53,482 nt of DNA from an uncultured Gammaproteobacteria bacterium (GTDB lineage Bacteria > Patescibacteriota > Patescibacteriia > UBA2196 > CAYSSY01), in contig CAYSSY010000002.1 in the NCBI GenBank assembly GCA_964434055.1, positions 16,076 to 69,557 of the forward strand, read 5' to 3'. The notes beneath the pieces are model-generated. The model did no database searches. It was not told where the DNA came from and saw only the letters and a list, made by a program, of their open reading frames with translations. Numbering within the stretch: position 1 is the stretch's first letter; the number at the start of each line of letters is the position of its first letter. Positions 11,016 through 11,455 of this stretch are shown here, in pieces. The position numbers were made by a program, and so were the translations under genes.

Positions 11016-11455
11016 TAAGTCCAGGCGGGATCATAAGCCGGATTCTGTCCCTTTCAATAATGAAAGAAAGCGGTCATCTATCTTAAGCGTAGATTTTACT
11101 ACTTGCACCGGATAAGGTTTACCCAAATCTATGTCGCCATAGAAGCGCGTGGTCTCTTACACCGCGTTTTCATCCTTACCCTTTACATAATATGTGAAGG
11201 GCGGTTTATTTTCTGTGGTACTTGCTCGCGGCTTTGACATTGGCCAAAAAAGTAAAACGATCGTGATCTACTTTTTATGTATGTCTTATACCTGGTTCTG
11301 TTTCAGAACTATCCTTGGTCATTGTCATTAAAACAATGAGGTGTCCGGACTTTCCTCCCTGCACTAATTTTTATTAATACACAGTATTTAAAAATTAATA
11401 TTCTGGGTATTAGACAAAAAACAGTGCAGGGTAACCGCTCACCCACCTGGACTTA
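11016..11455 (-). ncRNA. rnpB: RNase P RNA
   Basis: Minus strand carries GAGGAAAGTCCGGAC (11343-11357) and ACAGAATCCGGCTTA (11034-11048). P1 pairs AAGTCCAGGTGGG with CCCGCCTGGACTT. AAACCGCC, GGTAAA and GCAAG cores are present. Confidence 0.95.

Follow-up and report, generated by a model that had tools for sequence, protein, structure and literature searches.

The RNase P RNAs of Aquificales and Chlorobium, which lack P18, keep P15-P17 and the CCA-binding loop, and the GGU-less RNAs of cyanobacteria and plastids keep both the P15-P17 architecture and P18. The loss of P18 in Aquificales and Chlorobium is reported at second hand in PMC8457005 (citing Marszalkowski et al. 2006 and Haas et al. 1994). 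The same paper describes the L8-P4 interdomain contact as mattering more in vivo than L18-P8, and, for Deinococcus radiodurans, an extended P9 whose tip pairs with L12 (P9c). Types A and B are separated by the P6/P16/P17 module (PMC7191817); type B has P10.1, P15.1/P15.2, P18 and a GG for CCA in L15, lacks P13/P14, and docks L5.1 on L15.1 (PMC5066622, PMC7191817). Closest to the RNA described here are those of CPR bacteria, for which Lui, Nielsen and Arkin 2021 showed that many rnpB genes need lowered Rfam thresholds for detection (PMC8172020). Many CPR RNAs are without P13, P14, P16 and P17 and some without P18 or nearly all of P15, 23 of 35 have no UGG motif, and helices may be much lengthened (PMC8172020). 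That study gives examples from 35 circular genomes, highlighting cases without P12-P14 or nearly all of P15, draws a comparison with the GGU-less RNAs of cyanobacteria and plastids, and defines no subtypes (PMC8172020).

Searching the window, the whole stretch of 53,482 nucleotides analyzed here, with cmscan, we found a single match, a bacterial type A RNase P RNA (RF00010) on the minus strand, which bears out the RNase P RNA identity given in the original prediction. The match spans model positions 1-367 of 367 with an E value of 4e-46 and a score well above the gathering score of 100, and RF00010, rather than type B RF00011, is the best model of its clan at this locus. The gene and its promoter are placed as follows.

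11017..11450, minus strand: rnpB, RNase P RNA gene, 434 nt; RF00010 149.1 bits, full-length.
11459..11486, minus strand: sigma-70-type promoter of rnpB, TTGACA, 16 nt, TATAAT; 12 of 12 consensus matches.

RNA nt 1 follows 8 nt after the end of the -10 hexamer, and a (CAAGAAA)x3 heptamer repeat lies at 11494-11514, immediately upstream of the -35 hexamer. On the other side, the downstream gene most likely starts at an ATG at ~11005, ~12 nt past the RNA 3' end, and no terminator was seen between the two genes. Within the rnpB 3' end is a promoter-like site (11030-11057, minus strand; TTGAAA, 16 nt, TATGAT; 10 of 12 matches), suitably placed for driving this downstream gene, which encodes a membrane protein.

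The source genome is a CPR genome of 1.25 Mb, 36% GC and 77 contigs, 98% complete, and it carries one copy of rnpB. The look-up of rnpA proposed in the original prediction found the gene (PF00825, 61.3 bits, RNR motif kept) in the canonical rpmH-rnpA-yidD-yidC operon arrangement, and a search of the genome for a protein-only RNase P (PIN_5/HARP) found none. An independent JGI metagenome contig is 100% identical across 2076 nt including the entire rnpB; the layout described below is therefore not an assembly artefact of the bin, and an assembly deletion in the P15-P18 segment is unlikely.

The helices of the RNA, with RNA nt i corresponding to window position 11451-i, are the following.

11442..11450 / 11021..11029 (RNA nt 1-9 / 422-430), minus strand: P1, from cmscan; 7 of 9 pairs change on both sides.
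11433..11439 / 11069..11075 (RNA nt 12-18 / 376-382), minus strand: P2; 91% of cells paired, 6 of 7 pairs change on both sides.
11357..11431 (RNA nt 20-94), minus strand: P3, a 75-nt AT-rich irregular hairpin; fold -28.9 kcal/mol, z -7.9.
11344..11352 / 11035..11042 (RNA nt 99-107 / 409-416), minus strand: P4, the catalytic-core pseudoknot; U102 bulged.
11340..11343 / 11106..11109 (RNA nt 108-111 / 342-345), minus strand: P5; 100% paired.
11319..11339 (RNA nt 112-132), minus strand: P5/P7 hairpin, at the type-B P5.1 position and the junction of the would-be P6 strand; fold z -4.1.
11310..11314 / 11110..11114 (RNA nt 137-141 / 337-341), minus strand: P7, from cmscan and the projected structure.
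11295..11309 (RNA nt 142-156), minus strand: P8, loop GAAAC; 98.9% paired, L8 adenines invariant.
11227..11294 (RNA nt 157-224), minus strand: P9, extended, 68 nt; tip ACGAUCGU, A-rich internal loop at the L9 position.
11217..11226 / 11115..11123 (RNA nt 225-234 / 328-336), minus strand: P10/P11, from cmscan and the projected structure.
11174..11204 (RNA nt 247-277), minus strand: P12, short, 31 nt, from cmscan and the projected structure.
11148..11166 (RNA nt 285-303), minus strand: P13, loop GUAAGAG; stem covaries, loop conserved.
11128..11143 (RNA nt 308-323), minus strand: P14, GCGA tetraloop; 97.4% paired, 6 of 6 pairs change on both sides.
11089..11102 (RNA nt 349-362), minus strand: P15, a 4-bp hairpin GUAG/CUAC with loop UAAAAU, no GGU; stem covaries.
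11076..11088 (RNA nt 363-375), minus strand: single-stranded joiner from P15 to P2, GCUUA plus AGAUAGAU, at the would-be P18 site.
11050..11067 (RNA nt 384-401), minus strand: P19 hairpin, between P2 and the P4 3' strand; fold z -5.2.

Projecting the proposed pairs onto a MAFFT alignment of 19 order-level sequences, we found that 87.6% of cells are paired in the full structure; sliding the 3' partners by 1-3 columns lowers this to 31-43%. Changes on both sides occur in 72 of the 100 pairs, and none of 500 shuffles matched any of these measures. P13, P15, the inner P9 helix and P19 all covary, and the C-A mismatch in P13 of this RNA becomes a U-A pair in relative G007. Thus, where a single hairpin had been predicted at the P13/P14 position, both helices are present and covarying, and the P19 hairpin, found in all order-level relatives with variable sequence, had been overlooked. 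P4 is paired in 100% of cells, with five of its eight pairs invariant. The universally conserved core is also present, comprising GAGGAAAGUCC, the GCAA of J5/15, AGAU.GAUGA of J18/2, and ACAGAA.CCGGCUUA, and its residues are invariant or nearly so across the 19 sequences.

Nothing is missing from the S-domain (P7-P14, with conserved J11/12, J12/13, L8, L13 and L14) or from the catalytic core (P4, the J5/15 adenines, J18/2 and J2/4); since both are conserved, the ordinary reading is that of a working, RnpA-dependent RNase P. The missing helices and CCA-binding motif, together with some relatives whose rnpB falls under the Rfam gathering score, could instead point to a decaying, non-functional gene, with tRNA 5' processing done by something else. 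This reading is very improbable, however, given a sole copy with a perfect consensus promoter and retained rnpA, no HARP found, an invariant core, helices maintained by compensatory changes across the order, and the recovery of the sequence in RNA libraries. As judged from sequence comparison, the locus is very probably a single functional type A RNase P RNA gene, protein-assisted, with a minimal catalytic domain and an ancestral layout common to the order.

The catalytic domain is minimal in the P15-P18 region. Between the GCAA of J5/15 and AGAUAGAUGA of J18/2 there are 19 nt, the 4-bp hairpin at 11089-11102 followed by GCUUA, compared with 78 nt in E. coli; the short interval had been anticipated, and it likewise measures 19 nt when taken from GCAA to AGAUAGAU, whose residues are invariant or nearly so across the order. 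In the cmscan alignment, the 39-nt P16/P17 interior that the model holds inside P15 shrinks to 1 nt and every P18 column is a deletion, in agreement with the predicted absence of P16/P17 and P18. P6 is gone because P16/P17 are gone. A placement of P16-P18 elsewhere, named in advance as what would overturn the prediction, was not seen for any of the three helices within the 434 nt in any alignment. The predicted lack of a GGU loop is also borne out, since L15 reads UAAAAU and GGU is absent from the whole P15-P18 segment.

To place these losses among relatives, Rfam searches of 60 genomes were followed by anchor-based measurement of the segment. In 15 of 15 measurable order-level relatives, from two other families of the Kuenenbacteria-like order, GCAA and AGAUAGAU are 15-22 nt apart and P18 is absent. 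The order-level segment is always one short hairpin with a covarying stem, with the variants GUAG/CUAC, GUCC/GGAC, GUUC/GAAC, GAGC/GCUC, GUCA/UGAC, GCCCC/GGGGC and CUCCG/CGGAG. UGGU in the P15 loop occurs only in G006, G008 and G014, of the Kuenenbacteria-like family, and is gone from the other order members. In other orders of the class, segments of 40-47 nt hold a P15 hairpin with GGU plus P18, and longer segments measure 60-65 nt, or ~80 nt upward (to ~119) with full P15-P17 plus P18. Outside the order, the collapsed segment was found in a sole sampled genome, G028.

This distribution reads as a stepwise reduction, in which P18 would have been lost at the base of the order; the UGGU kept in G006, G008 and G014 fits stepwise loss. 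Under the best explanation, the reduced layout dates back to the order's ancestor rather than being peculiar to this genome. A pattern scan returned 74 matches outside the order, mostly false, since TGCAA occurs in P18 loops too, and the matches of a class-wide pattern search beyond the order and G028 were mostly due to chance, at other loci. In the Saccharibacteria L099, L100 and L117, GCAA and AGAUAGAU are 13-14 nt apart with no hairpin, so that P15 and P18 are both gone; the rnpB of these three, like that of one order-level relative, falls under the Rfam gathering score. The pattern scan also picked up other reduced rnpB forms in some Peregrinibacteria and Peribacteria.

Compared with type A RNAs (RF00010; E. 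coli M1 RNA), this RNA shares P1-P5, P7-P14, the joining regions, the P4 pseudoknot and an RnpA partner, but it lacks P6/P16/P17, P18 and the L15 GGU, has the shorter P15-P18 segment, and carries the extra P5/P7 and P19 hairpins and an enlarged P3 and P9. Among the features by which type A is recognized, it has the end-to-end RF00010 score, P4 and the core, P13/P14 without P10.1 and an encoded rnpA; those missing are the P6/P16/P17 module, a P18 with a GNRA loop docking on P8, and the L15 GGU. With type B (Bacillus; RF00011) it has in common the lack of P6/P16/P17, a hairpin at the P5.1 position, P19, and a P15 closed as a hairpin loop. Unlike type B, it has P13/P14, lacks P10.1 (the cmscan alignment leaves only CAA between P10 and P11) and P15.1, and has a P5/P7 hairpin loop that is not conserved. 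By this comparison, the type B resemblance is one of position only. The P18-less type A RNAs of Aquificales and Chlorobium, members of unrelated phyla cited in PMC8457005, share the natural loss of P18 and of L18-P8, whereas here the P18 and P15-P17 modules are lost together. Like the cyanobacterial and plastid RNAs, this one has lost the L15 GGU in a lineage with many tRNA genes that do not encode CCA.

The CPR RNAs of PMC8172020 are the nearest match, being derived from type A in CPR genomes with P16/P17 (sometimes P18) and UGG/GGU lost and helices extended, and this rnpB shows all the marks of that diverged CPR type, namely the losses, the extensions and a CPR genome. It differs from the highlighted cases in retaining P12, P13, P14 and a mini-P15. 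The original prediction had located the novelty in the exact combination of losses and gains, with the reservation that the architecture might match a CPR form already described. The reservation largely holds, given the forms published by Lui et al. 2021 (PMC8172020); the losses are common to the 15 of 15 measurable relatives, and the enlarged P3 alone is private. This RNA is therefore a typical member of a known unusual CPR group, with reductions that are lineage-typical and broadly published. Because reduced CPR forms had already been published, the general picture of RNase P is unchanged. Our literature search found no published account of the order-wide distribution, the stepwise loss, the conserved P9 arm with the P5/P7 hairpin, or a named subtype.

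The long P9 region had been noted from the outset, and it measures 68 nt (11227-11294). The extension shows sequence conservation throughout the order and covariation over three families. Where L9 would lie, the arm carries an internal loop, AUAA/AAA, that does not vary; a UACA/GGNCAA loop is likewise conserved, and the tip reads CGAUCG. In the 19 sequences, the inner helix is 94.7% paired and three of its five pairs change on both sides. Similar P9 extensions are found in many other families of the class, and class members with a short P9 have an ordinary GNRA L9. The tip (window 11262-11269) reads CGAUCG in 17 of the 19 order-level RNAs and is a different palindrome in other families.

These features raise the possibility that the order-wide layout is a functionally distinct subclass in which a type A S-domain is joined to a minimal C-domain, with a hairpin at the P5.1 position, P19, and a conserved P9 arm that would make a new tertiary or protein contact in place of P18 and P15-P17. 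The sequence conservation and three-family covariation of the arm point in this direction, as does the normal GNRA L9 of short-P9 class members. [quoted passage not shown] Unlike in D. radiodurans, which shares the extension and the internal loop at the L9 position, no covarying partner was found for the P9 tip here; the lone other GAUC, beside P1, was tried and rejected, since it varies while the tip stays constant and the two do not covary. Moreover, the extended P9 also occurs in class members that keep P18 and a GGU-bearing P15, so there is no link between the arm and the losses, and self-complementary tips are common on many peripheral hairpins and not on P9 alone. We consider a distinct subclass of this kind unlikely, and the order-wide minimal form of type A remains the preferred reading.

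Where P9 is extended, its tips are mostly short perfect palindromes, in at least nine versions, and perfect-palindrome tips are also found on P3, the P5/P7 hairpin, P8, P12, P13 inserts, P15 and P19. A specific dimerization or kissing signal at the P9 tip was rejected, as palindromic tips are not confined to P9. The excess is small overall, with 120 palindromes of at least 8 nt observed and 87 expected. Palindromic tips look like a general property of hairpin origin, not a P9-specific one, and they may reflect helix growth by template switching rather than function. In the rnpB of relatives (e.g., L003, L005, L015 and L050), peripheral tips are very often self-complementary tetraloops closed by C-G, and perfect palindromes of up to 20 nt occur in P19, P12, P13 inserts and P9. 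The genome of the order-level relative G008 contains over a dozen copies of a palindromic repeat, GTTCAATTCTGGAGAATTGAAC, spread over many contigs.

The hairpin predicted between P5 and P7 does exist at 11319-11339, with a fold z of -4.1, but it is not new. Hairpins at this site, with sequences and loops unrelated among relatives, are shared by 13 of 19 order-level RNAs and by most RNAs of the class, some of which keep P16/P17. By its distribution, the P5/P7 hairpin is an old, variable peripheral helix at the type-B P5.1 position. P3, predicted at about 75 nt, spans exactly 11357-11431. In relatives P3 is mostly ~17-30 nt, compared with 75 nt here, and this extension is private to the genome. 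G010, G033 and G053 have P3 extensions too, but unrelated ones, and a direct comparison with the independent extension of G010 found no similarity. The private extension is probably a neutral helix expansion. Its origin as a repeat or mobile insert was rejected, because blastn against the genome returned its own locus and otherwise only 12-20-nt AT-rich chance matches.

Twelve RNA runs contain part of the stretch, and the listed runs contain at most 0.44 of its sampled words. Contigs from four metatranscriptome studies cover RNA nt from about 104/123 to 426-432 (within window 11019-11347, some 310 nt at the 3' side of rnpB) at 100% identity, with 3' ends 2-8 nt (21 nt in X8) inside the predicted rnpB 3' end. 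They are compatible with rnpB expression and with that 3' end. Their 5' stops fall at 11324-11347 (RNA nt 104-127), in or just past the P5/P7 hairpin, where the DNA continues unchanged. RNA nt 1-103 and the flanking genes are uncovered in four RNA runs, although gaps in contigs carry no proof. Neither the genome nor its relatives gave a match to the loose ends of X8 and X12.

Such stops could mean that the RNA exists in two pieces held together by P1-P5, either through removal of the AT-rich P3 extension, in the manner of an rRNA intervening sequence, or through a nick in the AU-rich loop that the P5/P7 hairpin exposes. As a weak hint of this, X9 and X11, from two studies, end without loose ends at 11327/11328, in the hairpin loop, and X8 ends at 11347 (RNA nt 104) against an adapter; the P3 extension also forms a near-continuous duplex of ~30 bp, and the genome encodes RNase III. 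Yet the evidence comes from contigs and not from reads, the X8 contig crosses the hairpin loop, the end points vary between runs, and an end at RNA nt 104 would break P4. In addition, cDNA libraries recover AT-rich hairpins poorly and small fragments are lost in library preparation, and the X12 flanks are unrelated on both sides, suggesting chimeric assembly. Library bias or strain forks may produce such stops as well as RNA processing. Technical causes are at least as likely as processing or nicking, so the stops are a weak hint at most, and a fragmented RNA is quite unlikely. We give similarly little credence to the two ideas taken jointly, that is, a naturally fragmented ribozyme and, more broadly, a Kuenenbacteria-like minimal-C-domain subclass whose P9 arm replaces the lost P18/P15-P17 contacts.

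As a functional type A ribozyme with a minimal catalytic domain, the RNA together with RnpA would cleave 5' leaders off pre-tRNAs. Recognition of the pre-tRNA would rely on contacts of the T-arm with the S-domain and of the acceptor stem with the core, without CCA pairing, as CCA-L15 pairing would have no GGU partner in L15. With P18 lost, the L18-P8 contact is impossible, and the orientation of the two domains would rest on the L8-P4 and L14-P8 contacts. The extended P9 probably aids this orientation through the A-rich internal loop at the L9 tetraloop site, to judge by its invariance. The loss of P18 elsewhere, the importance of L8-P4 and the extended P9 of Deinococcus (PMC8457005) together suggest that the helix losses seen here are tolerable.

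For annotation and comparative biology, the analysis provides a helix-by-helix map of one CPR rnpB and a joint loss of P16/P17/P6 and P18 common to all sampled members of one Patescibacteria order. Sister lineages hold graded forms, from the full segment to a P15 hairpin with P18, then a P15 hairpin with GGU and finally one without GGU. This series is a natural experiment in how little catalytic-domain periphery suffices with a protein subunit, and it also bears on the dispensability of CCA pairing even where most pre-tRNAs carry CCA.

Only 8 of 41 tRNA genes encode CCA in this genome, which also has two genes for CCA-adding-type nucleotidyltransferases. An explanation of the GGU loss by CCA-less tRNA genes fits this genome but was rejected for the order. 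In a pattern census of ten order-level genomes, CCA-ending tRNA genes range from ~6 to 32 per genome, unrelated to the presence of GGU: G001 has no GGU and ~32 tRNA genes with CCA, and G014 keeps GGU with ~12. Because the loss of GGU and the lack of CCA in tRNA genes do not go together among relatives, the GGU-CCA link is weak, and, in contrast to cyanobacteria and plastids, the loss in this order does not follow the number of CCA-encoding tRNA genes.

Outside the window, four tRNA genes of this genome without CCA (Cys-GCA, Gly-TCC, Thr-TGT and Thr-GGT; G000 C18:438-645, C38:about 3560-3750, C1:35305-35400 and C1:41363-41460) have a common 3' trailer, GAGGCGA(T/A)GG, that is able to pair with the 5' leader of the same genes. 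For both Thr genes, stem, tRNA and stem form a unit of ~110 nt that is embedded in another, tRNA-like gene, following its D-loop GGTAGA. Excising C18:461-571 restores a tRNA-Thr(TGT) in ARAGORN, and the outer copy on C38 is degenerate. The nested Thr units look like a tRNA-carrying cassette inside a tRNA gene.
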